From NCBI GenBank assembly GCA_041649475.1, contig JBAZNA010000001.1, positions 24,895 through 88,894 on the forward strand: a stretch of 64,000 bases of DNA, written 5' to 3'. Position 1 is the stretch's first letter. The number at the start of each line of letters is the position of its first letter. Below the pieces are notes generated by a model. That model was not told the DNA's origin and did not search any database. It saw only the letters and a list, made by a program, of their open reading frames with translations. This DNA comes from Patescibacteria group bacterium (lineage in GTDB: Bacteria; Patescibacteriota; Patescibacteriia; Magasanikbacterales; GWA2-37-8). Shown here piece by piece: positions 20,238 to 56,084 of the stretch. The translations under genes and the position numbers were made by a program.

Positions 20238-20248
20238 GTTACGAATAT

Positions 20249-20641: not shown

Positions 20642-20653
20642 ACTAAAAAAATA

Positions 20654-21912: not shown

Positions 21913-21986
21913 AATCTCACCCCCTTTCCATTGATTGTATTTGTCATATGAAAATGCGTCTAAAAACGGCTATATTATACCACATT

Positions 21987-22439
21987 TTACTGCGGAGCTG
22001 AAGTCAAATATTGAGTGAAGGTGCTTAAGATGAAATAACTGGTGAAAACTAACATCAGCCCGATAACTGCCCAGAGCATTGTTTTTGAACCATTTTTTAC
22101 TCTTTCTTCGTTCCCTGCCGATGTCAGCCACTGAAAACCGCCCCAAACAAACATGAGCAGAGTGAGACCGCCAACCAGGCCCAAAGCGGCTTTAATTATA
22201 ATTTGAATTACTTGCGGCACGCTTGTGCTTCCACTTATATTAGAAAGAGGATTTTGTAAATTACAAACCGTAATCGGGGTTCCGGCTGCGGTTTTTGATT
22301 GAGTACAGCCGGCTGTTTGCGGAGTTGCTGCCGCGGGAGCGGCCAAAGCGATCACGGGAACACTTAAAAAAATAAAAAAGGATGTAACCCCTATAACTAT
22401 TCTAAAAAAAATTCTCATAAAATCACGGGTGTTAATCAT
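21987..22439 (-). CDS. TrbC/VirB2-like pilin-family protein, paralog 7
   Basis: WGGFQWLTSAGNEERVKNGSK core. 4-nt overlap with the next gene. Confidence 0.55.
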   Translation of the reverse strand: MINTRDFMRIFFRIVIGVTSFFIFLSVPVIALAAPAAATPQTAGCTQSKTAAGTPITVCNLQNPLSNISGSTSVPQVIQIIIKAALGLVGGLTLLMFVWGGFQWLTSAGNEERVKNGSKTMLWAVIGLMLVFTSYFILSTFTQYLTSAPQ

Positions 22440-22954
22440 TTAATCGCTTTAATCACAAAATTCACCAAGGTATAACTTAATAACATTACCAAAACCCCCA
22501 AACTTGTCCAAACAATAATTTTTTTGGCCGAGTCAATTTTTTTCTCCTCACCGGCCGCGGTCATCCATAATATTCCAGCCCAGATAAACAAAACCAGGGC
22601 GATTGAACCGATAAAAGCCATCATTAAACTGATAACTCGTCTAATTAAATCAGTGGGGGCTGTAAATTTTGCCGGATTCAATTGACTGGCTGCAGCACTC
22701 CTCAATTGATCGGCTGTTTTACCGCCTGTATTAATACCAGACGAAGCGGCGGGTTGTGCGGTTTTGTCACACGGACCACTTATTGGTTGTTCGCCGCATT
22801 TTGTACAGGCGTCCACTATGGACGCCGGATCTACTTTATTGCCGTCAAACTCCTGACAGGTCTTACAACAATGAAAAATATCCGCTTTAGCCGGAATTAA
22901 AAAAAACAAACTAGCCGCTAGCGCTAATAAATAAATTCTAAAATTAGATTTCAT
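22436..22954 (-). CDS. TrbC/VirB2-like pilin-family protein, paralog 8, with N-terminal Cys-rich domain
   Basis: HCCKTCQEFDG...CTKCGEQPISGPCDK before the IWAGILWMTAAGEEKKIDSAKK core. Confidence 0.6.
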   Translation of the reverse strand: MKSNFRIYLLALAASLFFLIPAKADIFHCCKTCQEFDGNKVDPASIVDACTKCGEQPISGPCDKTAQPAASSGINTGGKTADQLRSAAASQLNPAKFTAPTDLIRRVISLMMAFIGSIALVLFIWAGILWMTAAGEEKKIDSAKKIIVWTSLGVLVMLLSYTLVNFVIKAIK

Positions 22955-22961
22955 ATAAAAT

Positions 22962-23351
22962 TCACTTTACTCCCAAACTCGTGCTCAAAAACTGCACCAG
23001 TATATAGGCGCTAAACACAATAACCAAGCCAACTCCGGCGGCCATTATTATGCTCATGCCCTTTTTTACTTTTTCGGCATTCCCTTGCGATAAAATCAAA
23101 GTAAAGCCGCCATAAATAAAAAACAGTAAAGCCAGCGCGCCGACAATTCCAAAAACATAATTGCCAACAGTGATAAGCAGGGTGACAAAGACACTTACAT
23201 CCGCGCAGTCCCCGCTGGGCGTAGTTTGGTTGCCGCATTTTTGGATCAAATCCGAAACCGGATTGGCGGCTAAGGCAGACCCGGCCCCAAAAAACAACAA
23301 ACTGGCCATGATTGCCACAAAAAATATTTTTTTTAAATTTCGCTCACTCAT
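22962..23351 (-). CDS. Divergent TrbC/VirB2-like pilin-family protein, paralog 9
   Basis: IYGGFTLILSQGNAEKVKK variant core. The start was moved to the internal Met to avoid overlapping the upstream SBP gene. Confidence 0.5.
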   Translation of the reverse strand: MSERNLKKIFFVAIMASLLFFGAGSALAANPVSDLIQKCGNQTTPSGDCADVSVFVTLLITVGNYVFGIVGALALLFFIYGGFTLILSQGNAEKVKKGMSIIMAAGVGLVIVFSAYILVQFLSTSLGVK

Positions 23352-23356
23352 ATCGC

Positions 23357-24745
23357 TTATTGCGCAAAGGTTTGATTCATCTGCGAAGCCGCTCTGTTTA
23401 AAATTTCCTGCTGCCAACCCAGCGGGTCTTTGCTGCTTGGAATTGGTGCAAGCCATTGGTGGGTCATATCGCCCAAGCTCTTTACCGCACCATCATAATT
23501 ACGTCCTTTATACCAGCTATTTGCCACCAGCGCCTGCGAAGCAAACGGGAATAAAACCGGATTATCCAATTGTCCGGAAATATATGTGCGCAAAGCAGAA
23601 GGCCGCGCGGTTGTGTCCAAATAATCTTTAACCGCCTTTGAGTGGGTCAAATAATTCACTAAGTCCCAGGCCTCGTTTTGATGTTTTGATTTTCCGGTAA
23701 CGGTTTGGAGCCAATAACTAGCCGCGTTCACCGGCTGATCCGGGTTAAGCTGAAGCATTGGCAGAACATCAAAATTAAGCTGGGGCGCACGGGCTTTGAT
23801 GGTAGCGTAGTTAAAATTATAGCCAAAATAAAAAGCGAGAGATCCGTTTATGAAACTATCCAAAGCACTGCCCTTATCCTCGTTCCAAGAATAAACATCA
23901 CGGGTGGGATTGGCAAAATCAGTATAAAAATTCATAACGGACATAGCCGGTGACGATCCTTCGTTGACAGACGAGGCATTAAAAACCGCATAACCGTTTT
24001 GATCAACAAAACTCACGTTGCTCTGTTTGAACAAAATATATAACAAATCATCAAACCCGGGAATATTGGCAGCCGTGCCCAGCGCGGCTCCGGATTGTAA
24101 AACCGTGTCGGTCTTTTTATCAATCTTAGTTATCTTTAAGACCGCTTTGCGGAAATCATCCCAAGTTTTTGGCGGCTCGGCCACTCCGGCTTTGTCCAGT
24201 AAATCTTTATTGTAATACAAAGCCATGGTGTCAAAAGAAAGCGGCAATCCGTAAATTTTTCCACCAATCACAACATCGCTTTTAACCGCCTGCACATATT
24301 CTCTGTCTATTTGCGTGATATTCGGCAAAACAACATTAGCAGTATTTATGGTAGTATCTGTACCGCCAATCGCATTTTTTGTTACAGTGACGGTTGTGTC
24401 TTGCACCGAAGCAGGCATCGCCGCCAATTTTGTTTGGTAGACATGCATGTATTTATTTTGAACCGAAATAATATCCGGGCCCTTGTCTTCAGCCAGGGTT
24501 TCAACCAATCTTTGATAAATTTCATCCGGACGAAGCTGTCTTAAATTTATGGTCAAATACGGGCGTTCGGCTTTGAATTTATCTATATTCGCCTGCAGGG
24601 CATCAACATCATCATAAACTGTCCAGTATTCCAGGGTAACCGGCTGGGTTGCCTGTTGTTGAGCTGTAGACAAACCCTTGCAACCAAAACCCCCCAACAG
24701 TAAAACCGGGATTATAACTAAAAAAGGAAGAATTTTTTTAATCAT
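23357..24745 (-). CDS. ABC transporter substrate-binding lipoprotein (sugar-type SBP family 1)
   Basis: Lipobox LLLGGFGC at the N-terminus. 462 aa, with composition typical of SBP_bac_1. Confidence 0.65.
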   Translation of the reverse strand: MIKKILPFLVIIPVLLLGGFGCKGLSTAQQQATQPVTLEYWTVYDDVDALQANIDKFKAERPYLTINLRQLRPDEIYQRLVETLAEDKGPDIISVQNKYMHVYQTKLAAMPASVQDTTVTVTKNAIGGTDTTINTANVVLPNITQIDREYVQAVKSDVVIGGKIYGLPLSFDTMALYYNKDLLDKAGVAEPPKTWDDFRKAVLKITKIDKKTDTVLQSGAALGTAANIPGFDDLLYILFKQSNVSFVDQNGYAVFNASSVNEGSSPAMSVMNFYTDFANPTRDVYSWNEDKGSALDSFINGSLAFYFGYNFNYATIKARAPQLNFDVLPMLQLNPDQPVNAASYWLQTVTGKSKHQNEAWDLVNYLTHSKAVKDYLDTTARPSALRTYISGQLDNPVLFPFASQALVANSWYKGRNYDGAVKSLGDMTHQWLAPIPSSKDPLGWQQEILNRAASQMNQTFAQ

Positions 24746-24755
24746 AGCTCACCTA

Positions 24756-25622
24756 TTATACCACACTTTTCAAATACCTTCTAAATTCTCCGCTTAATTT
24801 TTTATCTCTTAAAGCAAAATCAACATTGGCTCTTAAATAGCCAATTTTTGACCCGGTGTCATAATAAGTTCCTTCAATTAACCGGGCATAAATAGACCGC
24901 TTCTTGAGCAATTTAAAAATAGCATCCACCAACCACAGCTCACCACTCTTGCCAAGTTTTGTATGCTCCAGCGCTCCAAATATATCTGGAGTTAAGATAA
25001 ATCCGCCCAAGCTGGCCAACTGCGAAGGCGCTTGCTCCGGACCGGGTTTTTCCACGATATTTTTTACCTGATAAGTGCTTTTTTCCACTTCCAAAGCATC
25101 AAGAATTCCATACTTTGACGTATCGGATTTGCTAACTTTATATGCCGTCAAAACCGGATCGCCGTATTTTTCAAAGGTCTCAACCAACTGTTTAAGCTGG
25201 GGTTTTTTGGGCGCATAGAAAAATTCATCTCCCCACATCACGGCAAACGGTTCGTCCCCAACCACGGCCTTGGCGCACAACACCGGCGTGCCGTTTCCAT
25301 ACGGGCCTTTTTGCCTGATAAAAATAAAATTGGCCATGTCCGCAATTTTTTTAACCTCTTCCGCCACTTCGTCTTTGCCCTGCTTTTTGAGCAGATTCAC
25401 CAACTCATAATTGGGACTAAAATGGTCTTCAACCGCCCGCTTGCTCGGACCGGTTACCAGAATAATATCCGTAATCCCCGACCGCACCGCATCCTCAACT
25501 ACATATTGAATGATCGGCTTATCCACCACCGGTAGCATTTCCTTGGGCTGGGCCTTGGTGGCCGGTAAAAATCTGGTACCCAGACCGGCGACCGGAATAA
25601 CCAATTTTCTTATTTTTGACAT
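24756..25622 (-). CDS. galU: UTP--glucose-1-phosphate uridylyltransferase
   Basis: VIPVAGLGTRFLPATKAQPKEMLPVVDKP signature. Confidence 0.85.
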   Translation of the reverse strand: MSKIRKLVIPVAGLGTRFLPATKAQPKEMLPVVDKPIIQYVVEDAVRSGITDIILVTGPSKRAVEDHFSPNYELVNLLKKQGKDEVAEEVKKIADMANFIFIRQKGPYGNGTPVLCAKAVVGDEPFAVMWGDEFFYAPKKPQLKQLVETFEKYGDPVLTAYKVSKSDTSKYGILDALEVEKSTYQVKNIVEKPGPEQAPSQLASLGGFILTPDIFGALEHTKLGKSGELWLVDAIFKLLKKRSIYARLIEGTYYDTGSKIGYLRANVDFALRDKKLSGEFRRYLKSVV

Positions 25623-25651: not shown

Positions 25652-27019
25652 TTACTTCACTTCCTGCCAACTAATCAAGTTATATTGCGAGCCGACCGGA
25701 AACCCGGGCGGCGGACCGTAAGTGAGATTGGCATCATAAGTGGAGTTTGTATTTCTGTATCCGGAAGTTATTGAGCCCCCGCCGGAAACCCAGCTCCAAG
25801 TCCAAATTTTCATGGATATAACCGAACCGTAAATCAGTAAATTTGTTTTCATGTCCCCCGGATAATAATAACGCTTGGCCGCGCCGTTTTGAGCCAAAAC
25901 AGCTGCGTCTATTTCCAAATCGTCCGGTGAATTGTGAGGGATTAAAATATTTTGATCGGCAATCAGACCCAAAACATCCGTACCGTCTTTGGCGGCATAA
26001 ATTATATCCCCATTTAAAATAATATTTTTACCGACCGAGGTGCCGACAACAACCCGGCCTTTTACAGCCCCGTCCACCCAAACATTATCATCAACAAAGA
26101 TATAACCATTGCTGGGCATATCATAAGTTGCGTATGACTCTTGAGTACTGATATCTATGCATGGCCAAAAATAATTATTGTCACCGACATCTTTGGCTTT
26201 ATAACAATCCGTTGTTAAGACCTTTGACACAATTACCTGTCCTTGGCTGGAAGAAGTGAATTGCAATCTCCAACCTTGCTGTCCGGAAGGGGTAAAGTTT
26301 AATCCGCCCAGATCCGGGTCTGAATTTGTTTCAATTTTGGCCAGATCGGCAGTGACCTCTGTAAAATCCTTGGCCGTAGCCGGAAAATCCCAATATGATT
26401 CGGGTCCGCCATCGCCCCAAATACCCGGTTTAACTTGACCTGCACCGCAACCATGATACTGCTTGCAGGTGTAAGTGGCCATGGCGCTGGTTATTGGAGC
26501 ATCACCGAGGCCGTCAAAACGGATTCCTCCATTGGCATGAAATTTTCCATGAGTCACTTCATCGTCTCCAATCCAAACATCAGTGCCGGTTAAAAAGGCG
26601 AAATCAGTCAGGGCCGGAAAACCAAGCTTCACTTTTATTTTTCTTTTTGTATTCGGCTGAATATCAAGCCAGCCGGTGGAAGTGACAGTGACGATGGTTG
26701 ATCCGGTTGGCGGCGGACCAATCTCCAAAGAAAAATGTCCGATTACATTTCCATCTTTGTCGGAATACGCGTGCACATACGGCCCGGGAGTACTTGTGCC
26801 GTTTCCGTCATAAAAATCTGTCTGACTATGAGCCAGGTGCCAGCGGTAATAATTAATGCCCGCGTCGGCAATTTGAAAAGCTACTTCCCGATTGTGTTTG
26901 CTTAGCGAAGCTCGGTTTTCAGAAATTGCATATCCGGCCAGACCAACCACAATGATTGAAAAAGCAATGGTGCCAAAGACCATGACAAAAAGTAAAATGT
27001 TTCCTTTTTTATTTAACAT
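25652..27019 (-). CDS. PilX-like type IV pilus-associated protein (N-terminal hydrophobic PilX_N-like segment)
   Basis: KKGNILLFVMVFGTIAFSIIVVGLAGYAI N-terminus. It is the last gene of a three-gene minor-pilin cluster. Confidence 0.45.
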   Translation of the reverse strand: MLNKKGNILLFVMVFGTIAFSIIVVGLAGYAISENRASLSKHNREVAFQIADAGINYYRWHLAHSQTDFYDGNGTSTPGPYVHAYSDKDGNVIGHFSLEIGPPPTGSTIVTVTSTGWLDIQPNTKRKIKVKLGFPALTDFAFLTGTDVWIGDDEVTHGKFHANGGIRFDGLGDAPITSAMATYTCKQYHGCGAGQVKPGIWGDGGPESYWDFPATAKDFTEVTADLAKIETNSDPDLGGLNFTPSGQQGWRLQFTSSSQGQVIVSKVLTTDCYKAKDVGDNNYFWPCIDISTQESYATYDMPSNGYIFVDDNVWVDGAVKGRVVVGTSVGKNIILNGDIIYAAKDGTDVLGLIADQNILIPHNSPDDLEIDAAVLAQNGAAKRYYYPGDMKTNLLIYGSVISMKIWTWSWVSGGGSITSGYRNTNSTYDANLTYGPPPGFPVGSQYNLISWQEVK

Positions 27020-27022
27020 ATT

Positions 27023-27640
27023 TTAATTATTTTTCAAATTCCTAAGCATCGCTTTTGATTCAATATAAAAAGGAGCCGGTGTTAAATTGGGATTCTGATC
27101 TAATTTTAAAATTATTCTGACAACTCTGATCTTAGTGACGTCAATTGGGCTGGCTAAGGGCGCTCCGGAGCCGTTATAATTACCGTCATAATAATAAAAA
27201 ACCGAAGTGGCATTGGCAAGTTCGTTGGCTACGTTGATTACGATTTCATTGACCGGATTATAAGTTAAGGGGTTGCCGGTTGGTTTGATGATACCCATCT
27301 TTAAGGTTGAAGTGACAGTAAAATAACGAAGACGTTCCACCAAACTATCGCTATCCGTATTTGAATAAAAAATAATTCCGGTGCTCGAAGCCGCCTGAAC
27401 CGGATAAGCGCCAATACTGGATTGCGAGGCGGTTCTGATTTGATTGACAAAATCCTGGGTGGCTTTCCGACCTTCATTTTGGGTAGAGAGCTGTTCCCAA
27501 ACAACGGAATTGTATCTGGAACCAGTCAGATATACGGCCACCACCGCGCCAACCAGTAGAACAAAAATACCCAAGGCCACAAGCACCTCAATCAACTGCA
27601 GGCCACGATTATCTGTTTGTATTTTTTTTAAAACAAACAT
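27023..27640 (-). CDS. Type IV minor pilin / pseudopilin (prepilin-type N-terminal methylation domain)
   Basis: NRGLQLIEVLVALGIFVLLV: G-x-x-L-I-E prepilin signal followed by a hydrophobic helix. Confidence 0.65.
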   Translation of the reverse strand: MFVLKKIQTDNRGLQLIEVLVALGIFVLLVGAVVAVYLTGSRYNSVVWEQLSTQNEGRKATQDFVNQIRTASQSSIGAYPVQAASSTGIIFYSNTDSDSLVERLRYFTVTSTLKMGIIKPTGNPLTYNPVNEIVINVANELANATSVFYYYDGNYNGSGAPLASPIDVTKIRVVRIILKLDQNPNLTPAPFYIESKAMLRNLKNN

Positions 27641-27642
27641 AT

Positions 27643-29439
27643 TTAAGAACTGGGTGACATATTAACCAAGGTTGATCCATTTCCGCTTATATCAATGGTG
27701 CCGTTATTGGTTGTGTAACCGCTCCGAGAAACATCCAAAGTATAGGTATCAACCGACAAACCGCTGAAAAAAACCTGACCGGGCGGTGTACAACTGGTGG
27801 AAAATGTAAAAGCTACTTCCGACAGGGTGGGTGTATAAGATGTGCTGGATGTATTTAAAAATACTTTATATCTAAAATAACGGTTATTATCGTTTCCGCT
27901 CCAAATCAAAGTATTAGTAGCTGTATAAAACGTACCGGCCGTGCCATCCGGCCCTTTATAACTCCAACTGCTGGGAGTACTGGTGTTGCTGGAAGCAAAC
28001 TGGAAAGTAACAGGATTGGCGCCGCACTGTGTCTGCGCAGAATACTTAAAAATTATATTATTAAAGTTTACTTGCGTGCCCAAATCAAAAGTAGAGGACT
28101 CCAGCCAGCCGTTATTGGCATAATAAAGTCCGGATTTCTTTAATTTTAAATCACCCGGATAAGAGCTGTAATTTACGGTTCCGCTGTCAGCAAAATATTT
28201 TTTTGGATTGGTAAAATTTATTTGCCCGCTGCCGCTTGACCAATCCGTTTGCCTGGTATAACCATAACCGGTTAAGACAGTGACATCATAACTAGTGCCC
28301 GTAAGTTCTACTGTCGCGTCTGACAAAGGCAACCCGGTGCCGGCATCAACCACATTGACCAAGAGAGAATTTGCAGTATGCGCCTGAAGAATAACTTTGG
28401 CATCCTGGGTCAGACCGGGATTAATAGCTAACGGCAACATCGGCATGGCTCCGGCTACATCATAACTGATTGTGCCGGTAGTGGATAGAAAATAAGTATC
28501 CCATTCAATGTTGGGAAAACTATAATTTCCGGAAGCGTCGGTTGTAAAATTTTTATTAAATTTATAAATATCCGGATCGATGGCAATTTTCTTGGCGCCT
28601 GACATGTTTAACCGAACACTGCCCAGAGCCGCGCAAGCCGTATTAATGGTATGCAGGGTTAAATTACTTAATCTGTCTATGGAAAAACTAATGTCGGTCA
28701 CGTCCTGACTGACCACATTGGCCGGCGGTTTTATGGGTGTGGGCGCGCTGGGGCCGGAGACCACTGTATAATCAGTTGAATAGCCCGGCTTACTGACATT
28801 TATATAATAACTTCGCGTACCGGTGGTTGTGTCTATGATGCGCAAATAGCCATCATTTCCGGTTGTATCATTTACTATAATCAAGGGTGTGCGCGCAGTA
28901 TTGGTCACAGACACATCCGCGCCCGCTACCGGCAAACCATCGGCATCAAAGACCTGGATAAAAAGCGCGCCGTTAACGCTGGCGCCTTCCAACTGTTTGG
29001 GGGCCACAATTGTACTTAAAATAACGGACGCTTGTTGTAAACAATTTTGACAAATAGCCGACATTTCCACCAACTTAAAATCCGCCGGAGACAAATCGTG
29101 GGGTGTGCCGCTCGCAGTGCCATCAAACGGATCATCTATGTTTCTGATGGTTGTAATCAGAGTAAATATCTCTCCATTGCGAACAGTGGTGGTGGTATGA
29201 GGCAAAACTCCGGCCGGCACGCCGCTTATAATACCGACGCTATCATAAGGAAGATTGCGCACGACTTCCAATTGCTCGGCCAAAATACCTGTTTCCAAAA
29301 TGCGCGTGCGCGATTGATACACGATTTTAAAAATCAAAGTGATGCCCCCATAGATGCCGACCGCGAATAATACAAAAATAGCCGTCGCCACGATGACTTC
29401 TATAAGCGTAAAACCTTTTCTGTTAAGAAGGATTTTCAT
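27643..29439 (-). CDS. Large (598 aa) type IV pilin-like protein with canonical prepilin signal (putative tip adhesin)
   Basis: N-terminal RKGFTLIEVIVATAIFVL is the textbook class III signal. A long S/T/N-rich ectodomain follows. Confidence 0.65.
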   Translation of the reverse strand: MKILLNRKGFTLIEVIVATAIFVLFAVGIYGGITLIFKIVYQSRTRILETGILAEQLEVVRNLPYDSVGIISGVPAGVLPHTTTTVRNGEIFTLITTIRNIDDPFDGTASGTPHDLSPADFKLVEMSAICQNCLQQASVILSTIVAPKQLEGASVNGALFIQVFDADGLPVAGADVSVTNTARTPLIIVNDTTGNDGYLRIIDTTTGTRSYYINVSKPGYSTDYTVVSGPSAPTPIKPPANVVSQDVTDISFSIDRLSNLTLHTINTACAALGSVRLNMSGAKKIAIDPDIYKFNKNFTTDASGNYSFPNIEWDTYFLSTTGTISYDVAGAMPMLPLAINPGLTQDAKVILQAHTANSLLVNVVDAGTGLPLSDATVELTGTSYDVTVLTGYGYTRQTDWSSGSGQINFTNPKKYFADSGTVNYSSYPGDLKLKKSGLYYANNGWLESSTFDLGTQVNFNNIIFKYSAQTQCGANPVTFQFASSNTSTPSSWSYKGPDGTAGTFYTATNTLIWSGNDNNRYFRYKVFLNTSSTSYTPTLSEVAFTFSTSCTPPGQVFFSGLSVDTYTLDVSRSGYTTNNGTIDISGNGSTLVNMSPSS

Positions 29440-29520
29440 GGGGATATTATATCACAAATCACCGGTGAGTTCATCACTTGATTTTAAGTAATTGTTGTGA
29501 TAATATTTGAGACGTAATAA

Positions 29521-29603
29521 GCCCGGGTGGTGAAATCTGGTAAACACACTTGACTTAAAATCAAACGCCGAAAGGCTTGCGGGTTCGATTCCCGCCCCGG
29601 GCA
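29521..29603 (+). tRNA. tRNA-Leu (anticodon TAA), long variable arm
   Basis: Acceptor GCCCGGG/CCCGGGC, anticodon loop CTTAAAA, variable arm CGCCGAAAGGCTTGC, T-loop TTCGATT. Confidence 0.75.
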
Positions 29604-30140
29604 CTAAATTTTCACTTCCTCAACTCCATCTTTAGCATTCACCCATCTCGCCGCCACAAACAAGAAGTCACTTAACCGATTAAAATATTTATACAATTCC
29701 GGCCGAATTGGCGCGGTTTTTCCAAACGCCACCAATTGTCTTTCCGCTCTCCGGCAAACGGTTCGCGCCAAATGCAAATAAGCTCCAACTTCACTTCCGC
29801 CCGATAAAATAAAATTTTTAAGTTCCGGCAATTCCGACCACATTGTATCAATCCATTTCTCCAAATCCGTTATTTTCTCTTCGCTAAGCTTTTCTATTTG
29901 CTCATTAAGAGGCGTTTGCAGTGAGGCGACTTCCGAACCGGCTATAATTAAATCCTTTTGCACCTGAATCAAAAAATCTCTCAAATTTCCTTCATCCATT
30001 TTTGCTACCACCACCCCCAGAGCCGCATTTAGCTCGTCAATCTCGCCAATCACCTGCATCTCCAAACAACTCTTCCCTATCCTCCTGCCGTCTGATAAAG
30101 AGGTCTCACCTTCATCGCCCGTTTTAGTATAAATCTTCAT
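29604..30140 (-). CDS. ATP:cob(I)alamin adenosyltransferase, PduO/MMAB type
   Basis: MKIYTKTGDEGETSL N-terminus and the helical-bundle length (178 aa). Confidence 0.8.
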   Translation of the reverse strand: MKIYTKTGDEGETSLSDGRRIGKSCLEMQVIGEIDELNAALGVVVAKMDEGNLRDFLIQVQKDLIIAGSEVASLQTPLNEQIEKLSEEKITDLEKWIDTMWSELPELKNFILSGGSEVGAYLHLARTVCRRAERQLVAFGKTAPIRPELYKYFNRLSDFLFVAARWVNAKDGVEEVKI

Positions 30141-30149
30141 ACTATCTAT

Positions 30150-33100
30150 CTATGAACACCCAGTGGTGCTTCCACAATTTAAACATTTATAACAACTCCC
30201 GCTTCTGATAGTTATATGCCCGCAAGTCGGGCAAGGCGGCGCATCGCCCATCATACCTGATAACTGTTGATTTACAGCATCAGCCGCTGCACCCGCAACC
30301 TCCTCAACCGGTTCAACTTTGGGAATGTTCGGAAGCGTGGCCTGTGTGCCGGAAGCATCATCTTCTTCGCGTATATCATCTGCCCCTAACTGCATAGTTT
30401 TTTGACCGCGCAATTCCGCTTCAATTTTTTCCATTTGCTCGGCCCGGTTCTTTTGAATGCCGGCCGGTTTCACCTGCACAAAATCCATTCTTCCCAGATA
30501 TTCCATCCCCAACACCCGGAAAATAAAATCTATAATTGAAGTGCAAAATTTAATATTAGGATGATCAGTGATACCGCTCGGATCAAATCTGGTAAAGGTA
30601 AACTTATCAACATATTCTTCCAGTGGCACGCCATACTGCAAACCGGTTGAAATGGACATAGCAAACAAATTGAGCAAGCTTCTAAATGCGGCTCCCTCCC
30701 TGTACATATCAATAAATATCTCCCCTAACTTTCCATCCGGATATTCACCGGTGCGCAGGAAAATCTTTTGCCCGGAGACCTTGGTTTTGATGGTTATCCC
30801 GCTGCGCTTATAAGGCAACCTTCTCTGCTCGCCATGAACATAAATCTTTGACCCCTGGTTGGTGCCATCATGCGCGTATTTAATCATGGCGTGCGTAGCC
30901 AGTACCGATACGGTTTCTTCTTTCTTTGCTTCTACTTTCTCTTCTTTTTTCTCCTCTTCTTTTTCTTTCTTATCACCCTTGCTTGATAGCGGTTGTGATA
31001 ATTTACTCCCATCCCTGTATAAGGCAATCGCTTTGAGTCCTAATTTCCAGGAAGCGATATAAGCGGTTTTGACATCGTCAATCGTGGCCTCATTGGGCAT
31101 ATTGATGGTCTTGGAAATTGCGCCGGACAAAAACGGCTGGACTGCGGCCATCATTCTAATATGCCCTAAATAATGAATATACCGCTGGCCCTTTTTGCCA
31201 TTTTTATTGGCCGTATCAAACACCGCGTAATGTTCTTTGCGCAGATGCGGCGCGCCTTCAATGGTCATAGCTCCGCAAACATATTCATTGGCCGCTAAAA
31301 TCTGTTCTTGAGTGAAACCCAAAGCGGAAAGCAAATTAAAATTCAGGTCATTATATTGTTCGCTGGTAAAACCAAGGCGAGTGAGACAATCTTCACCCAG
31401 CGTCCAGGCATTAAACGCAAATGGCAGTTCAAATACCATTGGCATTGATTTCTCCAATTTTACTATTTCTTCTTCAGTGAAACCCTTTTCTTTTAATGTC
31501 TCATGATTAATATGCGGCGCGCCTGAAAGAGTGCCCCGACCGCGCAAATAATTTATTATGTCAATCATTTGGCTCTCGGTATACCCAAGCACCTTTAAAG
31601 CCATAGGCACGGATTCATTTACAATTTTAAAATATCCGCCGCCGGCCAATTTTTTAAATTTCACCAGCGCAAAATCCGGCTCAACGCCGGTGGTGGCGCA
31701 GTCCATAAGCAAACCGATTGTGCCGGTGGGAGCAAGCAGGGTCACCTGCGAATTTCGGTAACCAAATTCCTGACCAAAAGCCAGGGCTTTGTCCCAACTC
31801 TCCTGCGCGGCAGAAAGTAAATATGACGGCACATACTGTGAATCTAAACCCATTGGCTTGACCGCCAAATTTTCATATTCATCTTCAGGGGCATTGTAGG
31901 CGGCACGCCGGTGATTTCTCATCACCCGCAACATATCTTCTTTATTAAGTTCATACTGCGCAAAAGGTCCGAGCAATTTGGCCATCTCCGCGGACGTGGC
32001 ATAGGACTCGGCAGTCATCAAAGCCGTAATGGCTCCGGCAATGCCCATGGCTTGCGGAGAATCATAAGGGATACCGGCGGTCATAAGCACACTGCCGACA
32101 TTGGCATAGCCCAGTCCCAAACTTCGAAATAGATAACTGTTCTTGGCGATTTCATAACTTGGAAATTGCGCCATTAAAATGCTTACTTCCAAAACAACCG
32201 TCCAAATTTTGGTGGTGTATCTAAAACCTTCAACATCAAAAGCCAAGGCCTCCGCGTCATAAAAATGGCCAAGGTTAATTGAGGCCAAATTACAGGCGGT
32301 GTCGTCTAAAAACATGTACTCACTGCAAGGATTTGAGGCCTTTATCCGGCCCGACTGCGGACAAGTGTGCCAATCATTTATATTGGTATCATATTGCAAT
32401 CCCGGATCAGCGCATGACCAGGCCGCGGTGGCAATTTTGTCCCATAAATTTTTAGCCGGCAAGGTCTTACAAACCTGACCGTTTATACGCCAAGTTAAAT
32501 TCCAGTCGCCGTTATTTTCAACCGCTTCCATAAAATCCTGGGTCACGCGGATGGAATTGTTTGAATTTTGTCCGGAAACAGTTTGATAGGCCTCGCCTTC
32601 ATAGGCAGAATCATAGCCGGATGAAATCAAAGCCGCCACTTTTTTTTCTTCATTCATTTTCCAATCAATAAACTTCTCAATATCCGGATGATCAATGTTT
32701 AAAATAACCATTTTGGCCGCCCGGCGGGTAGTGCCGCCGGATTTGATCGCGCCGGCCGCGCGATCGCCAATTTTTAGCCAGCTCATCAATCCGGAAGATT
32801 CGCCGCCACCGGATAATTTTTCTCCGGAGCCGCGCAAATTGGAAAAATTTGTCCCAGTGCCGCTGCCGTATTTGAATAACCTTGCTTCCCTGACCCACAA
32901 GTCCATAATTCCACCCGGATTTACCAGATCGTCTTTGATTGATTGAATGAAACAAGCATGCGGTTGATTGCGGGAGTAGGCGTCAGGCGACGGCATCACT
33001 TCTCCGGTGGCATCCTCAACATAGTAATGACCCTGCGCCGGACCATTTATGCCATAGGCCCAAAAAAGACCGGTGGTAAACCATTGCGGCGAATTTGGCG

Positions 33101-50916: not shown

Positions 50917-50954
50917 TGCTATAATATTTCTAGATATTCCCGCCCTCGCGGGAA
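50917..50954 (+). promoter_or_regulatory. Extended -10 promoter (TGcTATAAT) plus leader hairpin (TTCCCGC-cctc-GCGGGAA followed by a T-run) upstream of pilB
   Basis: Read directly in the 130-nt divergent region between rpsF and pilB. Confidence 0.45.
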
Positions 50955-50969: not shown

Positions 50970-52700
50970 ATGCTCCCATCCACCGTTTTAAAAGATGTCA
51001 TAAAAAAATTCAGTTTGGCGCCTGCCTCCGCCATTCGTTCAGCCCAAGGCAAGGCCACCCAAGCGCACAAAAACCTTGAAGATATACTAATAAACGAGGG
51101 CATAATCAATGAAGCGGACCTCTATGAAAAAGCGGCGCAATATTTGGATATCCCGTTTATCAGCTTAAAAGGCCGGGAAATAAAAAAAGAAATCTTGAAC
51201 CTTATCCCCGGTCCGGTTGCCGGCACGCACCAGGTGGTTGCTTTTGATAAAGAAAAAGACGGGCTAAAATTGGCCATGACCGACCCTACCGACATCCAAA
51301 CCATAGAATTCTTGCATAGAAAAACCGGCCTGGAACCAAAAATATACATCACTCCTCCCGGCGATCTAAAAGAGGCCTTGCACCGATACCATGCCGAACT
51401 TGAAGAAGACCTGCGCGTGATCCAAGATGCTACCGGCGGCGGTGAAAGCGGTAAGGATTTAAAGAAAGCGGCCGAAGAAGTCCCTACCATAAACATCGTT
51501 AACAGTATTTTAGAACACGCCGTCTATGAAGGCGCGTCCGATATTCACATTGAACCGGCGGAAAAAGAAATCTCCGTCCGCTACCGGATAGACGGCATTT
51601 TAAAACAAATAATGACCCTGCCAAAAAATGTGCAAAACGGCATAATCGCCAGAGTCAAGATATTATCAAATCTAAAAATTGACGAGCACATGATCCCTCA
51701 AGACGGCCGGTTTAAGATTCAAATTCAGGATGAAAAACTGGCTTTCCGTATTTCCATAATTCCGGTTTATGACGGTGAAAAAATCGTCATGCGCTTGCTC
51801 CACGAAGGCGCAAAACCGCTAAGTTTAGACCAACTTGGCTTCCTGGAAAAACAAAGAACCATTATTGAGGCGGCCATTAAAAAGCCGCATGGCATGATTC
51901 TGGTTACCGGTCCAACCGGATCAGGTAAAACTACCACTCTATATTCAATCCTGGGCATCTTAAATCAACCGGGCGTTAATATTTTAACTATTGAAGACCC
52001 AATTGAGTATCGTCTCCCCGGAGTCAATCAAAGCCAGATCAATCCGAAAGTCGGTTTCACTTTTGCCTCCGGTCTGCGCGCCTTCCTGCGCCAAGACCCG
52101 AATATCATCATGGTCGGAGAAATCCGCGACCAGGAAACCGCTGAAATCGCCATCCACGCGGCCATGACCGGCCACCTGGTGCTTTCCACCTTGCACACCA
52201 ATGACGCTCCAACCACCGTTCCCCGCCTCATTGATATGGGCGTGCCGCCATTTTTGGTCGCTTACACCACCAACATCATCATGGCCCAGCGCTTGGTGCG
52301 CAAGATCTGCACCTACTGCAAAAAAGAATTCACGCTGGACAAGGCCTCGGCCGTTGAATTGGGAAAAGTGTTTGATGTAAAAAAGATGTCAACTCTTTTT
52401 AAAGACAACATCACCGGCAAAGACGCGGAGTCCTCAAATGACTTGGAAAAAATCAAATTTTATACCGGCGCCGGCTGCCACCGTTGCGGCCAAAGCGGTT
52501 TTAAAGGACGCGTCGGCATTTATGAAATTTTAGAAATTGACGAAGAGCTGATAAAAATGATTAATTCACACGCCACCGCGGAAGAAATAAAAAATTACGC
52601 CAGAGATAAAGGTATGATTACCATGCTTGAAGACGGATTAATTAAGGCAAAAACAGGCGTCACCACCATCAGTGAAATACTGCGGGTAACCAAAGAATAA
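50970..52700 (+). CDS. pilB: Type IV pilus assembly ATPase PilB (GspE family)
   Basis: Walker A GPTGSGKTTT, Asp box, His box, and a tetracysteine CxxC...CxxC motif. N-terminal GSPII_E_N-like domain. Confidence 0.9.
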   Translation: MLPSTVLKDVIKKFSLAPASAIRSAQGKATQAHKNLEDILINEGIINEADLYEKAAQYLDIPFISLKGREIKKEILNLIPGPVAGTHQVVAFDKEKDGLKLAMTDPTDIQTIEFLHRKTGLEPKIYITPPGDLKEALHRYHAELEEDLRVIQDATGGGESGKDLKKAAEEVPTINIVNSILEHAVYEGASDIHIEPAEKEISVRYRIDGILKQIMTLPKNVQNGIIARVKILSNLKIDEHMIPQDGRFKIQIQDEKLAFRISIIPVYDGEKIVMRLLHEGAKPLSLDQLGFLEKQRTIIEAAIKKPHGMILVTGPTGSGKTTTLYSILGILNQPGVNILTIEDPIEYRLPGVNQSQINPKVGFTFASGLRAFLRQDPNIIMVGEIRDQETAEIAIHAAMTGHLVLSTLHTNDAPTTVPRLIDMGVPPFLVAYTTNIIMAQRLVRKICTYCKKEFTLDKASAVELGKVFDVKKMSTLFKDNITGKDAESSNDLEKIKFYTGAGCHRCGQSGFKGRVGIYEILEIDEELIKMINSHATAEEIKNYARDKGMITMLEDGLIKAKTGVTTISEILRVTKE

Positions 52701-52716: not shown

Positions 52717-53832
52717 ATGGCCGGAAAAATTAAAAAACCAAAAAAACTTTCCCCGTTTGAACAAAAATTGAATAAATGGGTCAGTGACCATCTTTCCAGA
52801 GTGCCAATCGTGGATAGAATTTTGTTTATCAGCCACATGAAAACCATGGTTAAAGCCGGGCTATCTCTAATTGACGCTTTAAAAATCTTAAGTGAAGAAA
52901 TAGGCAACAAAAAATTAAAAACGATTATCAGTGAAATCAAAGACGGGGTTGAAAAAGGCAAGCAACTAAGCGAGGTTTTGGCACAGTATCCAAAAGTTTT
53001 TCCGCATATTTATGTCAGTATGATAGAAGCCGGAGAAACCGCCGGCAAACTGGAAATGGCTTTAGACCAGGTGTCAACACAGATGAAAAAAAACCATGAA
53101 TTGTCTTCAAAAATTATGGGAGCCATGATGTACCCGGCCGTAATTGTCGCGGCTATGGTTGGCATCAGTATTGAGGTGGTATTTTTTATTCTGCCGAAAA
53201 TGATGGACATGTTTAAAGAATTTGACGCGCAGCTGCCGCTCGCAACCAGAATCTTAATCGCCTTTACCGACTTTACCATAAAATATGGCGTCTGGGTGCT
53301 GATAGGCCTGGTGCTTTTTATAATCCTTGCCATCTGGTTAATGAAAAAACCAAAAATTAAAAGGGTTATTCATGCCATGAATTTAAAACTTCCGGTCGCC
53401 GGCCCGATTATCAAAAAAATAAATTTGGCGCGTTTTACCTTAACTTTAAATTCTTTGCTGACCAGCACAATTCCAATTATTGACGCGGTGCGCATCTGCG
53501 CCGAAGTGCTTGGCAATGTAATTTACAGAGAAAATCTTTTGTATGTTTCCGAATCCCTGAAAAAAGGCGAAACCTTATCTGAAATTCTGGCGCGATTTCC
53601 CAAAACCTTTCCGCCAATGGTCACAGAAATGATTATGGTCGGCGAACGGTCCGGCCAAACCGAAGATATGCTTAAAGAACTGGCCGAATACTATGGAAAC
53701 GAAGTTGACACAACCATGAAAAATTTCACCACTATAATTGAACCGGTGATCATCCTGATTCTCGGCTTGGCTGTGGCTGGAATTGCTGTGGCGGTTATCA
53801 TGCCAATGTATTCATTGGCCCAAAATATTTAA
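52717..53832 (+). CDS. pilC: Type IV pilus platform protein PilC (GspF family)
   Basis: Two T2SSF repeats. Three TM segments. 371 aa. Confidence 0.85.
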   Translation: MAGKIKKPKKLSPFEQKLNKWVSDHLSRVPIVDRILFISHMKTMVKAGLSLIDALKILSEEIGNKKLKTIISEIKDGVEKGKQLSEVLAQYPKVFPHIYVSMIEAGETAGKLEMALDQVSTQMKKNHELSSKIMGAMMYPAVIVAAMVGISIEVVFFILPKMMDMFKEFDAQLPLATRILIAFTDFTIKYGVWVLIGLVLFIILAIWLMKKPKIKRVIHAMNLKLPVAGPIIKKINLARFTLTLNSLLTSTIPIIDAVRICAEVLGNVIYRENLLYVSESLKKGETLSEILARFPKTFPPMVTEMIMVGERSGQTEDMLKELAEYYGNEVDTTMKNFTTIIEPVIILILGLAVAGIAVAVIMPMYSLAQNI

Positions 53833-53846: not shown

Positions 53847-54956
53847 ATGTTGCTCCGTAACCCCTTCGCCGGTGCCTTTGGAATAAATATCGGAGATCTG
53901 TCCATAAAACTGGTCCAAATTTTGCCTTGCCCGTTTTATAAAAGATGCGGGTATGTTTTAAAAGAAATCCGTTCCGCCAGCATCCCCCCGGGGCTGATTG
54001 TTGACGGTGAGATTCAACAACCCGAACCGGTCCGACAAAAATTGTTGTTTCTGCTCGGCCGTGGCGACCATAAATATAAACCCATAAAATCAACCTGGGT
54101 GGTGGCCAGTTTGCCCGAAACAAAAACCTTTTTAAAGCTGATTGAAGTTGAAATTGACGGCACTGATTTATCTTCGGTGGATATTGCCTATCAAGCCAAA
54201 AAGCATCTGCCTTTTGAGTTGGAAGAAACCTACTTGGATTGGCAAATAGTTAATACCGATACAAAAGAAAATACGGCTCAAATTTTAATTGGAGCCGTGC
54301 CAAAAGTGATTGCCGATTCCTACACGTTCCTGCTTGAAAGTGCGGGCCTTAATCCGATTGCTTTAGAAATAGAAGCCATTTCCATAGCCCGATCAATGAT
54401 TACGGAAGATAAAGATTATACCGGTGAAGCCAGAGCGCTTTTAGATCTTGGCGGCACCAGATCAAGTTTGCTTATATACGACAACAAAAGCATACAATTT
54501 TCAACGACCTTAAAATTTTCAGGCGAACTGGTAACTTCAGCCGTAGAATTGGGCTTAAAACTTGAACGCCATCAAGCCGAGGTGTTAAAGATTAATAACG
54601 GCCTGGCTTTTGACCAAAAAAATCCAAAATATCTGCCGATTGTTTCTAAGTTGGCTGAAAATTTAATAGAAGAAATCAAAACAAATTTTCTTTTTTATAA
54701 AGAACATTTCAAAAATCCGAATAAAATCAACCATATTACCATGTGCGGCGGGATGAGCAATTGGAAAGGAATAGATAACCTGGTCTCGCGAAAATTAAAA
54801 ATAGCGACTCACCCTGGCCACCCTTGGAAAAACCTGTTCAACCGGGGGTTATACAGTTTTGATCAGGAAAAAAGCTTGGGCTTCGCCTCTTCCATAGGCC
54901 TGGCCCTAAAAGCGGCTAAAAATCCATTTGAAGACGGAACCAAAACCATAAGATAA
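53847..54956 (+). CDS. pilM: Type IV pilus assembly protein PilM (actin-like ATPase fold)
   Basis: Follows pilC. LDLGGTRSSLLIYD phosphate-1-like motif. Confidence 0.75.
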   Translation: MLLRNPFAGAFGINIGDLSIKLVQILPCPFYKRCGYVLKEIRSASIPPGLIVDGEIQQPEPVRQKLLFLLGRGDHKYKPIKSTWVVASLPETKTFLKLIEVEIDGTDLSSVDIAYQAKKHLPFELEETYLDWQIVNTDTKENTAQILIGAVPKVIADSYTFLLESAGLNPIALEIEAISIARSMITEDKDYTGEARALLDLGGTRSSLLIYDNKSIQFSTTLKFSGELVTSAVELGLKLERHQAEVLKINNGLAFDQKNPKYLPIVSKLAENLIEEIKTNFLFYKEHFKNPNKINHITMCGGMSNWKGIDNLVSRKLKIATHPGHPWKNLFNRGLYSFDQEKSLGFASSIGLALKAAKNPFEDGTKTIR

Positions 54957-54960: not shown

Positions 54961-55548
54961 ATGATGAATATAAATTTGAATCTATTGCCGCCGCCTAAAA
55001 AATCCAGATTGGAATATGTGCTGAATTTTTTGATGACCAAAGATATATTAGAAATCGTTATTATTGTGTTCGCCACTCTGGCCATAACCTTAATCTGGAG
55101 CTGGATGATTTTGGAAAATCAATACGCTGACTTGGTATCCAGCGCCGTTTTAGTAAACCGCGATTCCTATTCATACAATAAAGACGTAAAAATTGTTAAC
55201 GACGCCGTTGGTGAAATAATCAAGATCAGCAGAGAATACGGCATTATCACCCCGAAACTTACCGAGCTTATTTCCGATCTGCCGCCCGATATTAAAATCA
55301 ATTCCATGCAGTTTGACAGAACAAGTCAAAATTTAATCTTATCCGGAACCGCCAAAACCAGAGAGGCGTTGCTTAATTTTCAAAGCAAACTCCAGAGCAT
55401 AACCTGGTTAAGCGGAATTGAAACACCCGCTTCCCAACTTTTTCAAAAAGAAAACATTAATTTTCAGTTTACGTCCGGTCTCAAGGGCTTGCCGCCAATT
55501 GGCAGCAAAGAACCATCCAGATCGGCCCCAGCAGATTCAGACCTATGA
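54961..55548 (+). CDS. pilN: PilN-like pilus assembly protein (single TM)
   Basis: N-terminal MMNINLNLLPP and one TM. Position after pilM. Confidence 0.6.
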   Translation: MMNINLNLLPPPKKSRLEYVLNFLMTKDILEIVIIVFATLAITLIWSWMILENQYADLVSSAVLVNRDSYSYNKDVKIVNDAVGEIIKISREYGIITPKLTELISDLPPDIKINSMQFDRTSQNLILSGTAKTREALLNFQSKLQSITWLSGIETPASQLFQKENINFQFTSGLKGLPPIGSKEPSRSAPADSDL

Positions 55549-56084
55549 AGCTTGATTTAACCAAAAGAACAATTTTAAAGGTTGGCATACTGGCGCTCGC
55601 AGTTCTAATAATTGCTTTCGGAATTTTCTGGCCGACCACTTATTATATTCAAAAAATAAACGACCAAACGTCTCAATTGCGCGCCTTCTTGGAAGAAAAA
55701 TACCAGCAAACGCTCCGTTCCAGAGTCACCAGAAAACGGCTGACTGAAATCAAGAGTACCCTGCCTGATTTGCAGTCGCATATCTTTAAAAAAGGCAACG
55801 AGTTACAATTAATCACCTACCTTGAAAATCTTTCCGCCAAACACAAATTAACCCAGGCCATAAATAATTCCGATCTTGATAAAATCACCAATAATAAAAT
55901 AACTATCGCCATGACCCTTTCCGGAGATTATTTAAATATCCTGAACTATACGACTGATTTGGAATCCTCAATTTATTTCTTAAACATTGAACAATTCCAG
56001 ATAACGCCGGTTTTTACCAGAAATGGCGACCTAACCTCGCAAGTCAGTTTGAACTTAACGCTCGGCATGTATGTCAGCCAATAA
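55545..56084 (+). CDS. pilO: PilO-like pilus assembly protein (single TM)
   Basis: One TM plus coiled region. 4-nt overlap with pilN. Confidence 0.55.
   Translation: MKLDLTKRTILKVGILALAVLIIAFGIFWPTTYYIQKINDQTSQLRAFLEEKYQQTLRSRVTRKRLTEIKSTLPDLQSHIFKKGNELQLITYLENLSAKHKLTQAINNSDLDKITNNKITIAMTLSGDYLNILNYTTDLESSIYFLNIEQFQITPVFTRNGDLTSQVSLNLTLGMYVSQ

Follow-up and report, generated by a model that had tools for sequence, protein, structure and literature searches.

Three consecutive genes with prepilin-like products, lying apart from the pilus machine genes and close to an array of VirB2-like genes, raise the question of which apparatus they serve, which of their products would stand at its tip, and whether the two neighbouring gene sets belong together. 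The window, by which we mean the whole 64,000-nt stretch of DNA analysed, comes from Patescibacteria group bacterium (Magasanikbacterales; GWA2-37-8; assembly GCA_041649475.1, contig JBAZNA010000001.1, positions 24,895-88,894 of the forward strand), and coordinates are counted from its first letter as position 1. We consider it likely that the three genes, hereafter the trio, are one operon encoding core minor pilins, three in number and equivalent to the GspI-J-K / PilV-W-X set; a priming and tip complex of I-J-K type is the reading that suits them best.

Gene structure, signal peptides and promoter-like motifs of the trio

The list of open reading frames contains the three genes on the minus strand, separated by gaps of 2 nt (598- and 205-aa genes) and 3 nt (205- and 455-aa genes), and bears out the co-directional arrangement, sizes and prepilin signals given in the preliminary description:

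27643..29439, minus strand: 598-aa modular minor pilin, class-III signal peptide KG/FTLIE, starting MKILLNRKGFTLIEV
27023..27640, minus strand: 205-aa minor pilin, RG/LQLIE, the ORF containing NRGLQLIEVLV
25652..27019, minus strand: 455-aa minor pilin, cap-type by prediction, with Gly6 and no Glu5, starting MLNKKGNILLFVMVFG
29446..29454, minus strand: TGATATAAT, a promoter-like element of the extended -10 type, 6 nt before the start codon (ATG) of the 598-aa gene

The 598-aa protein matched N_methyl (E 4.4e-7) and TIGR02532 (E 2.7e-6), both over their cut-offs, and the 205-aa protein matched N_methyl under the cut-off (E 0.0074), a match found in 17 of 18 members of its family with a best value of 3e-8. 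Closer alignment of these families had been named as the step at which the prepilin reading could fail, and it showed Gly-1 and Glu5 to be invariant in the homologues of both proteins (69/69 and 78/78, respectively). The 455-aa protein matched PilX_N below the cut-off (E 1.9e-4, 21.8 bits against 25.5), and its family has an invariant Gly6 followed at +5 by F, L, V, I, Y, A, M or S, never by Glu. Two subunits with Glu5 and one without reproduce the pattern described for H/I/J and K subunits, respectively (PMC9934059).

A six-frame motif scan detected only two class-III signal peptides in the window, those of the 598- and 205-aa proteins, and Pfam scans of window ORFs of at least 100 aa not inside a longer annotated ORF found neither Peptidase_A24 nor a second T2SSE ATPase, so the window, as reported before, lacks PilA, PilD and PilT. 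The GxGDxK motif scan of hydrophobic ORFs likewise revealed no prepilin peptidase near the trio in 84 loci, indicating that the peptidase gene is unlinked to it. No fourth prepilin gene adjoins the trio in the window or in any of the 84 loci, except in L052, where a 156-aa GFTLIE pilin, a putative major pilin, lies directly upstream; nor was an H-type subunit found, so that only three genes stand against the four subunit types H-I-J-K throughout.

At least 594 stretches from species-representative genomes carry relatives of the trio, the 455-aa protein alone falling into ~1800 sequence clusters, and the gene order was identical in every relative with sufficient flank (~70 loci). Mean identity to the window proteins was 52% for the 455-aa, 49% for the 598-aa and 44% for the 205-aa protein, with the extra modules conserved to the same degree as the pilin modules. 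In loci having both, pilC showed 49% and pilM 34% against 43% for the 455-aa protein, so that trio and machine proteins diverge at similar rates.

Promoter-like motifs also argue for a tight operon. The window contains 10 copies of TGNTATAAT where 3.3 are expected, 10 being reached in 0 of 100 shuffles, and these copies lie mostly just upstream of gene starts. The looser form TGNTANAAT was present within 70 nt upstream of the 598-aa gene in 25 of 68 homologues but before the next two genes in only 2/76 and 0/78, so that within the trio, here and in relatives, such a motif stands only before the first gene. No Shine-Dalgarno sequence lies between TGATATAAT and the ATG of the 598-aa gene. A generic scan for the two sigma-70 hexamers gave 29 sites against 23 expected, too small an excess to be informative.

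Predicted folds and the probable identity of the cap

The predicted model of the 598-aa protein comprises an alpha-1 helix (residues 12-61) packed on a four-stranded antiparallel pilin sheet (78-145), the type IV pilin fold in a GspI-like form, and then a stalk in which about four to five beta-sandwich domains succeed one another (157-245, 247-353, 358-397, 443-547 and 555-594). The stalk domains are CnaB/transthyretin-like in the model, Foldseek against the PDB again returned CnaB-like stalk matches, and Pfam reported CarboxypepD_reg with an E value of 2.3e-14. GspI is the minimal pilin fold, and the I-like label of the 598-aa protein, which has ~450 residues more than GspI, is therefore tentative.

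The preliminary description had taken this protein for a probable tip adhesin and proposed comparing its predicted structure with PilY1/PilC-type adhesins. Large size and a place in a minor-pilin operon would suit a PilY1/PilC-type protein. PilY1, however, has neither class-III signal peptide nor pilin module, both of which the 598-aa protein possesses, and neither Pfam, the model nor the fold matches revealed a beta-propeller (PF05567) in it, the matches showing instead the GspI-like module and the CnaB/transthyretin-like stalk. We therefore reject a PilY1-type identity, which is almost certainly wrong. What endures of the earlier claim is the large modular pilin, which may act as an adhesin, but the better candidate for the cap is the 455-aa protein.

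Gene order and size alone place the 205-aa protein in a GspJ/PilW-like position, and its family profile matches solved structures only through the N-terminal helix. Among the solved structures, the 455- and 598-aa sequences and the family profiles A1 and A3 likewise retrieved nothing or only this helix.

The model of the 455-aa protein consists of an alpha-1 helix (4-64), a pilin sheet (81-133), a beta-solenoid (~140-427) and a last strand (447-454), and thus combines a GspK/PilX-type leader and a GspK-like pilin domain with a large extra domain. As it lacks Glu5, nothing can dock above it, and with its GspK-like pilin domain it should be the cap, being by its predicted fold the best suited of the three to close the filament. 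The same model recalls ComZ in ComZ-PilA2 of Thermus thermophilus (PDB 6qvi), which also carries a GspK-like pilin domain and a triangular, ice-binding-protein-like beta-solenoid placed before the last strand, and both proteins are too bulky for any place but the tip. They differ in that the solenoid has ~380 residues in ComZ and ~290 here, in the acidic surface of the 455-aa protein, in their partners and in the envelope type, and no sequence homology is detectable: 6qvi was not retrieved at E<=10 in single-sequence or profile searches of all PDB sequences.

This likeness raises the alternative that the trio is the DNA receptor of a competence pilus, the ComZ-like 455-aa protein binding extracellular DNA at the tip and retraction delivering it to ComEA/ComEC. 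The last strand at 447-454 fits the insertion point of the ComZ solenoid between the last two strands, the strong conservation of the solenoid would suit an invariant ligand, and Patescibacteria are known to have Com genes and natural competence (PMC10633639). Against it, neither the protein nor its family profile resembles ComZ in sequence, the globular part is acidic (pI 4.6, family median 5.4), which does not speak for DNA binding, and the window holds neither comEC nor comEA. Ice-binding proteins and tapirin adhesins share the solenoid fold, which therefore does not specify the ligand. Moreover, the tested Saccharibacteria T4P-2 pilin mutants transform normally and type IV pilus essentiality is unrelated to comEC (PMC11623550, PMC10633639). 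We regard a competence receptor as unlikely.

Linkage to the pilus machine and to the VirB2-like array

The machine genes of the window lie on the plus strand, in the place previously given; pilO has no Pfam support, although it matches the gene that follows pilN in relatives:

50917..50925, plus strand: extended -10 element TGCTATAAT, 45 nt upstream of pilB
50970..52700, plus strand: pilB, assembly ATPase (T2SSE + MshEN), Pfam E 4.3e-132
52717..53832, plus strand: pilC, platform protein (two T2SSF domains), Pfam E 2.1e-55
53847..54956, plus strand: pilM, PilM_2 E 2.7e-29
54961..55548, plus strand: pilN, PilN E 1.5e-4, just under the cut-off; follows pilM in relatives
55545..56084, plus strand: pilO-like gene, N-terminal transmembrane segment, no Pfam match; phmmer matches to the gene after pilN in L036, L051, L068, L072, L077 and L079

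In distant relatives the arrangement is pilB-pilC-[trio]-pilM-pilN-pilO. The order pilB-pilC-trio-pilM was seen in L072, L079 and L084, pilM directly follows the trio in eight distant relatives (including L036, L051, L068, L076 and L077, the last also showing pilC), and pilN and pilO follow pilM wherever the flank reaches. In a second arrangement pilBCMN lies divergently ~2 kb upstream of the trio (L053, L067, L069, L071 and L082; L059 shows pilB-pilC only). The trio is thus found either between pilC and pilM or ~2 kb from pilB, as would a core minor-pilin set, and this linkage, together with the conserved signal-peptide logic, backs the earlier assignment to a minor-pilin operon of a type IV pilus. 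The 21-kb separation noted previously is present in the window and is a derived, lineage-specific insertion: in other Magasanikbacteria ~2 kb separate pilB from the trio, holding only a gene for a ~160-aa protein and, in some loci, rpsF, ssb and rpsR, and the window retains the junction of pilB with rpsF-ssb.

The linked machine also bears on whether the three proteins are pseudopilins of a short T2SS-like or Com-like pseudopilus for secretion or uptake, as opposed to a long surface pilus. In structure the pilin modules come closest to the T2SS pseudopilins GspK, XcpX and XcpV, weak NCBIfam matches to GspI, GspJ, ComGE and ComGF were obtained, and neither a major pilin nor PilT is in the window. 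The partners in the window and in the relatives' loci, however, are pilB, pilC, pilM, pilN and pilO-like genes, with no GspD and no GspC, GspL or GspM. H-I-J-K-type sets are common to type IV pili and T2SS (PMC9934059), a stalk of 450 residues and a solenoid would serve no purpose if the pseudopilus stayed buried, and surface pili have been seen in cultured Patescibacteria (PMC11623550). A pseudopilus is in our view very improbable.

Downstream of the trio, galU and an SBP gene lead to the array:

24755-24763: extended -10 before the SBP gene, from the motif scan
19263-23456: eight PF18895 T4SS_pilin genes
21974-21982: extended -10 before the fourth array gene, from the motif scan
19238-19218, minus strand: strongest terminator-like site on this strand, only after the last array gene
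17568-17933: one further PF18895 T4SS_pilin gene

All nine genes described as TrbC/VirB2-like proved to be PF18895 T4SS_pilin, and the question is whether minor pilins and array work as a single surface apparatus and are expressed together from a conserved supercluster, the functional link suggested earlier. Between 29439 and 19263 stand thirteen co-directional genes, none more than 107 nt from the next, with no stronger terminator-like site before their end. Of the 55 loci whose sequence extends 5 kb or more downstream, 41 keep the succession trio-galU-SBP-array, at identities as low as ~42%. All of these 41 are galU-linked, and the named records among galU-linked loci are mostly Magasanikbacteria; outside this group no array follows the trio, which instead stands by pilM or unrelated genes. 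The promoter-like motifs separate array from trio here, and in relatives galU (27/52) and the SBP gene (21/48) often have their own, which makes a single 13-gene operon unlikely. The window has no VirB4 or VirB6, synteny alone is weak evidence where gene order is generally stable, and VirB2 arrays, already known in Patescibacteria in other contexts, are widespread there, mostly near virB4 in assemblies having both (PMC12102498). A joint apparatus is accordingly improbable, and the functional link is at best weakly supported by an adjacency confined to Magasanikbacteria.

Proposed assembly and relation to known tip complexes

Under our preferred reading of the trio as a priming and tip complex, a prepilin peptidase would cut after the conserved Gly, and the three proteins would assemble on the PilC platform through their hydrophobic alpha-1 helices and prime the PilB-driven polymerisation of a major pilin encoded elsewhere. 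Pili grow from tip to base, so the complex would end at the pilus tip. The 455-aa protein would form the cap and show its beta-solenoid outward, with the 598-aa protein beside or below it, projecting a ~450-residue chain of Ig-like domains. From the models, this chain and the solenoid are the probable ligand-binding parts, candidate ligands being a host-cell surface glycan or protein, or DNA.

Like GspI-GspJ-GspK and PilV-PilW-PilX, the trio is an operon of consecutive minor pilins in which Glu5 is missing from the last and largest subunit, itself extended by a further domain, and its genes sit, in relatives, with those of the machine. It differs in having three genes only, with neither H subunit nor PilY1, in a sequence similarity confined to the N-terminal helix, in the extra domain of its K-like subunit (a beta-solenoid, against an alpha-domain in GspK) and in a host that is presumably monoderm. 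An analogous tip set is PilABC of Streptococcus sanguinis (PMC9934059), where the Glu5-less subunit is small and the other two are modular (vWA, lectin), whereas here the Glu5-less subunit is itself modular, one partner is plain and the effector folds differ. Within the same superphylum, Saccharibacteria TM7x has an analogous PilV/W/X set, with a large PilX that has accessory domains and no predicted PilD signal and small PilV and PilW resembling T2SS pseudopilins, and PilX2 is needed for host binding (PMC11623550). Likened by description, the accessory domains there are a jelly roll and a seven-bladed propeller, against the solenoid and CnaB-like stalk of the trio. The catalogue of Raynaud et al. 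[quoted passage not shown]

The few Patescibacteria in culture depend on type IV pili for their epibiotic life, and to our knowledge pilus tip components in this group are known from Saccharibacteria only. The trio reveals no new kind of machine, being an ordinary part of a known one; what is newly defined is a conserved three-gene tip and priming module with a predicted I/J/K-like assignment and a ComZ-like cap. A further possibility, to which we give little credence, is that the cap is a ComZ-type solenoid pilin for an invariant ligand such as DNA, perhaps co-regulated with galU and the VirB2-like array in Magasanikbacteria. If so, the scavenging of DNA and nucleotides that has long been proposed for auxotrophic Patescibacteria would have its point of entry in the trio, with a solenoid as strongly conserved as the machine across a large clade of the group. 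Assays of adhesion or DNA binding in these uncultured lineages would have definite targets in the trio.

Genes and signal peptides of the trio

The ORF list contains three adjacent genes, here in transcription order:

27643-29439, minus strand, 598-aa prepilin gene
27023-27640, minus strand, 205-aa prepilin gene
25652-27019, minus strand, 455-aa PilX_N-like gene

The genes are separated by gaps of 2 and 3 nt, and the preliminary description had placed these three co-directional ORFs exactly. NCBI annotation already names a prepilin-type protein and a PilX N-terminal domain protein, and earlier descriptions exist for modular pilins, for ComZ and for minor pilins of Patescibacteria. The 598-aa protein (N-terminus MKILLNRKGFTLIEV) scores above the cut-offs of both N_methyl (E 4.4e-7) and TIGR02532 (E 2.7e-6), and contains a CarboxypepD_reg match (E 2.3e-14). 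The 205-aa protein carries RGLQLIE, and 17/18 members of its family match N_methyl, the window copy falling below the cut-off; the 455-aa protein matches PilX_N just under the cut-off (E 1.9e-4). The closest named relatives of the 598-aa protein are Candidatus Magasanikbacteria, and the best 120 of its 2469 family matches, the window's own protein excepted, are 56-76% identical to it and mostly near 598 aa long. The same kind of search returned 1220 matches for the 455-aa family; at E<=1e-3 this family accounts for 1780 of 1.84 billion cluster representatives, and a scan of species-representative genomes found a relative encoded in at least 594 stretches.

Among homologues drawn from the 84 loci of relatives, Gly-1 and Glu5 are present in 69/69 relatives of the 598-aa protein and 78/78 of the 205-aa protein, so the prepilin signals proposed earlier persist on closer alignment, where Glu5 might have been lost. 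In the 455-aa family Gly is invariant after basic residues, and position +5 is F/L/V/I/Y/A/M/S, never Glu. Two members with Glu5 and one without is the pattern of the conserved minor-pilin complex, with its I/J subunits that have Glu5 and its K subunit that does not (PMC9934059).

Predicted folds and the putative tip complex

The model of the 455-aa protein is confident (pLDDT 88.9, pTM 0.79):

residues 4-64, long N-terminal helix
residues 81-133, four-stranded sheet
residues ~140-427, long run of short parallel strands
residues 447-454, last strand

Its structural matches, with their scores, are Thermus thermophilus ComZ (15.0; 221 residues aligned, 17% identity), ice-binding-protein solenoids (13-15), GspK (11.1), S. 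sanguinis PilA (9.5), XcpX (8.7) and tapirin adhesins (7.3-7.6). In ComZ, which binds DNA and whose bulk fits the tip only, a triangular solenoid resembling those of ice-binding proteins interrupts a GspK-like pilin domain ahead of its last strand (PMC6561018). Since the model likewise combines a GspK-like pilin domain with a solenoid before the last strand, the 455-aa protein is predicted to share this architecture; sequence similarity to ComZ was not detectable, family profile included.

The 598-aa model (pLDDT 77.6) comprises:

residues 12-61 (helix) and 78-145 (sheet), small pilin module
after the pilin module, five beta-sandwich units
residues 401-429, low-confidence linker

Foldseek aligned the stalk with those of the Gram-positive surface proteins TIE, PitA, SpaA and BcpA. 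Distant lineages retain the N-terminal 265-400 residues but differ in the C-terminal part (433-1271 residues), which is how a modular pilin behaves; pilin plus PF13620 architectures have already been catalogued, with a Magasanikbacteria protein as the example (PMC8179133). Comparison with PilY1/PilC-type adhesins by structure prediction had been suggested, and the model contains no PilY1-type propeller.

The reading with the best support, and a likely one, is that the trio constitutes a core minor-pilin operon with three members of I-J-K type; the gene structure, the conserved signal peptides, the predicted folds and the linkage to the machine are what the analysis shows. Its products, for which we infer complex formation, a tip location and a ligand, would prime pilus assembly and end up forming the tip, where the 455-aa protein would be a ComZ-like cap and the 598-aa protein would display a stalk of Ig-like domains. 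The preliminary description took the 598-aa protein for a probable tip adhesin; as a cap, the 455-aa protein is the better candidate. That the latter binds DNA in the manner of ComZ, whose architecture it matches, is unlikely given the acidic charge of its globular part and the genetics of cultured relatives, both of which are unfavourable. The globular parts of the window's 455- and 598-aa proteins have a pI of 4.6-4.7 (family medians 5.4 and 4.55, respectively).

Transcription signals and the VirB2-like array

Pfam scans confirmed the nine VirB2-like (PF18895) genes reported previously. Downstream of the trio lie:

19263-25622, minus strand, galU, an orphan SBP_bac_1 lipoprotein-like gene (SBP gene) and eight VirB2-like genes
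17568-17933, isolated ninth VirB2-like gene

Thirteen co-directional genes run from 29439 to 19263 with gaps of <=107 nt, and not until 19238-19218 does the best terminator-like hairpin occur. Upstream of the 598-aa gene stands TGATATAAT (29446-29454), 6 nt from the ATG. Of the extended -10 motif TGNTATAAT the window has 10 copies where 3.3 would be expected, and 0/100 shuffles reached this three-fold excess:

7423-7431, 12495-12503, 17880-17888, 17956-17964, 21974-21982
24755-24763, 29446-29454, 33640-33648, 44178-44186, 50917-50925

Most copies stand just upstream of gene starts, among them those of pilB, the SBP gene, the fourth array gene and the isolated ninth VirB2-like gene, and because they are often 6-25 nt from the ATG they suggest that leaders in this organism are very short or absent. 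The copy at 33640-33648 falls inside a TTG-started ribonucleotide reductase ORF (30150-33668), whose true start probably lies downstream of 33640.

Related motif upstream of genes in relatives
598-aa gene, 25/68 loci
205-aa gene, 2/76 loci
455-aa gene, 0/78 loci
galU, 27/52 loci
SBP gene, 21/48 loci

As the motif precedes the first gene and is nearly absent before the 205- and 455-aa genes, the trio is a self-contained operon, and the genes downstream carry their own start signals. In the window the trio-galU gap is 29 nt and without motif, and here the operon may extend into galU.

The trio-galU-SBP-array adjacency is found in 41 of the 55 loci with >=5 kb downstream; in the other 14, pilM (five loci) or unrelated genes (nine) come next. 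VirB2 arrays of 2-11 genes have been reported in 383 Patescibacteria assemblies (PMC12102498). A functional link between trio and array, raised in the preliminary description, is very unlikely in view of the separate promoter motifs, the 14/55 loci lacking the array downstream, the restriction of the adjacency to one lineage and the wide occurrence of such arrays. Arrays elsewhere in Patescibacteria and the separate motifs point to a neighbourhood conserved within one lineage, not to a mechanistic link.

In the galU-linked loci (mostly Magasanikbacteria-named) the trio is followed by the conserved galU-SBP-array block, which many of them end with an MGDG-synthase-like glycosyltransferase gene on the opposite strand. 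Deeper-branching ones have one VirB2-like gene between galU and the SBP gene, which is therefore embedded in the array. No ABC permease, ABC ATPase or virB4 gene occurs near the SBP-array block.

Linkage to the pilus machine and conservation

Pfam scans bore out pilB, pilC, pilM and pilN at 50970-55548; the pilO call lacks Pfam support, but its ORF is matched in relatives by the gene that follows pilN. A six-frame scan of the 64 kb revealed no Gly-x4-Glu hydrophobic N-termini beyond the 598- and 205-aa proteins, and Pfam scans of the window's remaining long ORFs found neither Peptidase_A24 nor a second T2SSE ATPase, in agreement with the absence of PilD, PilA and PilT from the window noted earlier.

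The proteins of the window were compared with six-frame ORFs from 84 loci, 80 of them in species-representative genomes and 4 on metagenome contigs. The order 598-205-455 never varies among the loci with enough flank. Eight distant relatives (L036, L051, L068, L072, L076, L077, L079, L084; 455-aa identity 41-48%) have pilM directly after the trio, with pilN-pilO next wherever the flank reaches. Three of these loci (L072, L079, L084) also have pilB-pilC directly before the trio, and L077 shows pilC there, giving the full order pilB-pilC-[trio]-pilM-pilN-pilO. In L052, a Doudnabacteria MAG, the order is pilB-pilC-pilM-pilN, two small ORFs, a 156-aa (mature) GFTLIE pilin (6178-6804, immediately upstream of the trio) and the trio; this pilin is the sole additional prepilin gene, and the sole candidate major pilin, beside the trio in the 84 loci. 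In the galU-linked group, pilN-M-C-B lies divergently ~2 kb upstream of the trio in five loci, and pilB-pilC alone is visible in L059; the pilB-trio interval holds only rpsF, ssb, rpsR (some loci) and the gene for a ~160-aa protein. The window retains the pilB/rpsF-ssb junction (50970 and 50837-49893) in the same relative orientation, with ~20 kb interposed between ssb and trio (aminoacyl-tRNA synthetase, efp, tRNAs, ruvB, a 2503-aa surface protein, ribonucleotide reductase and others), so its 21-kb pilB-trio separation is derived and machine linkage is the older state.

Several further features accompany these loci. The ~160-aa protein, which is charged and conserved (…ERAEYLVKEVK…QNIM.HMQ…), is encoded directly upstream of the trio in L053, L059, L067, L069, L071 and L082; at this position the window lacks the gene and has a plus-strand tRNA-Leu (29521-29604). 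A 'Parcubacteria' MAG carries two tandem trios (L029, 1208-11353), the first 598-aa homologue being expanded to ~1270 residues. In galU-less Doudnabacteria-like loci (L052, L054, L062, L063, L065, L070, L078, L080, L083) the first ORF after the 455-aa homologue encodes a secreted protein of ~125 aa in which the motif 'PLQPxP...PNYxG' is conserved and which may be a lineage-specific fourth member of the set. Many TPA MAG records with the Patescibacteria-type operon (L005, L006, L012, L013 and others) carry the title 'uncultured Gammaproteobacteria' or that of 'uncultured Candidatus Saccharibacteria' and are probably mislabelled.

Other features of the window are:

33761-41272, minus strand, giant, fibre-like surface protein of 2503 aa in the block separating pilB from the minor pilins; it contains 10 stretches of YadA-head repeats, LVIVD repeats and a Peptidase_S74 (endosialidase chaperone) domain
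58814-63149, minus strand, second surface-structure-like cluster: a 948-aa protein with fn3, CarboxypepD_reg, SdrD_B and several membrane segments, and two secreted proteins without Pfam match, one of 281 aa with a C-terminal anchor and one of 210 aa rich in Ser, Thr and Gly
8958-12125, minus strand, genes for 23S and 5S rRNA; a 16S rRNA gene does not adjoin them within the window
13498-14169, minus strand, free-standing LAGLIDADG endonuclease ORF, 1.4 kb upstream of the 23S/5S genes, beyond tRNA-Leu

The 58814-63149 cluster might be related to the donor-strand-exchange Pam pili lately described in CPR bacteria (bioRxiv 10.64898/2026.03.03.709456).

In paired loci, mean identity to the window is 52% for the 455-aa protein, 49% for the 598-aa protein and 44% for the 205-aa protein. 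Where both genes are present, the 455-aa protein (43%) compares with pilB at 57%, pilC at 49% and pilM at 34%, and the solenoid and stalk domains are conserved equally with the pilin modules of their proteins. The trio thus behaves as a machine part, unlike a fast-diversifying host-specificity factor, and by analogy with Saccharibacteria and S. sanguinis host-cell adhesion would be the default expectation for its function.
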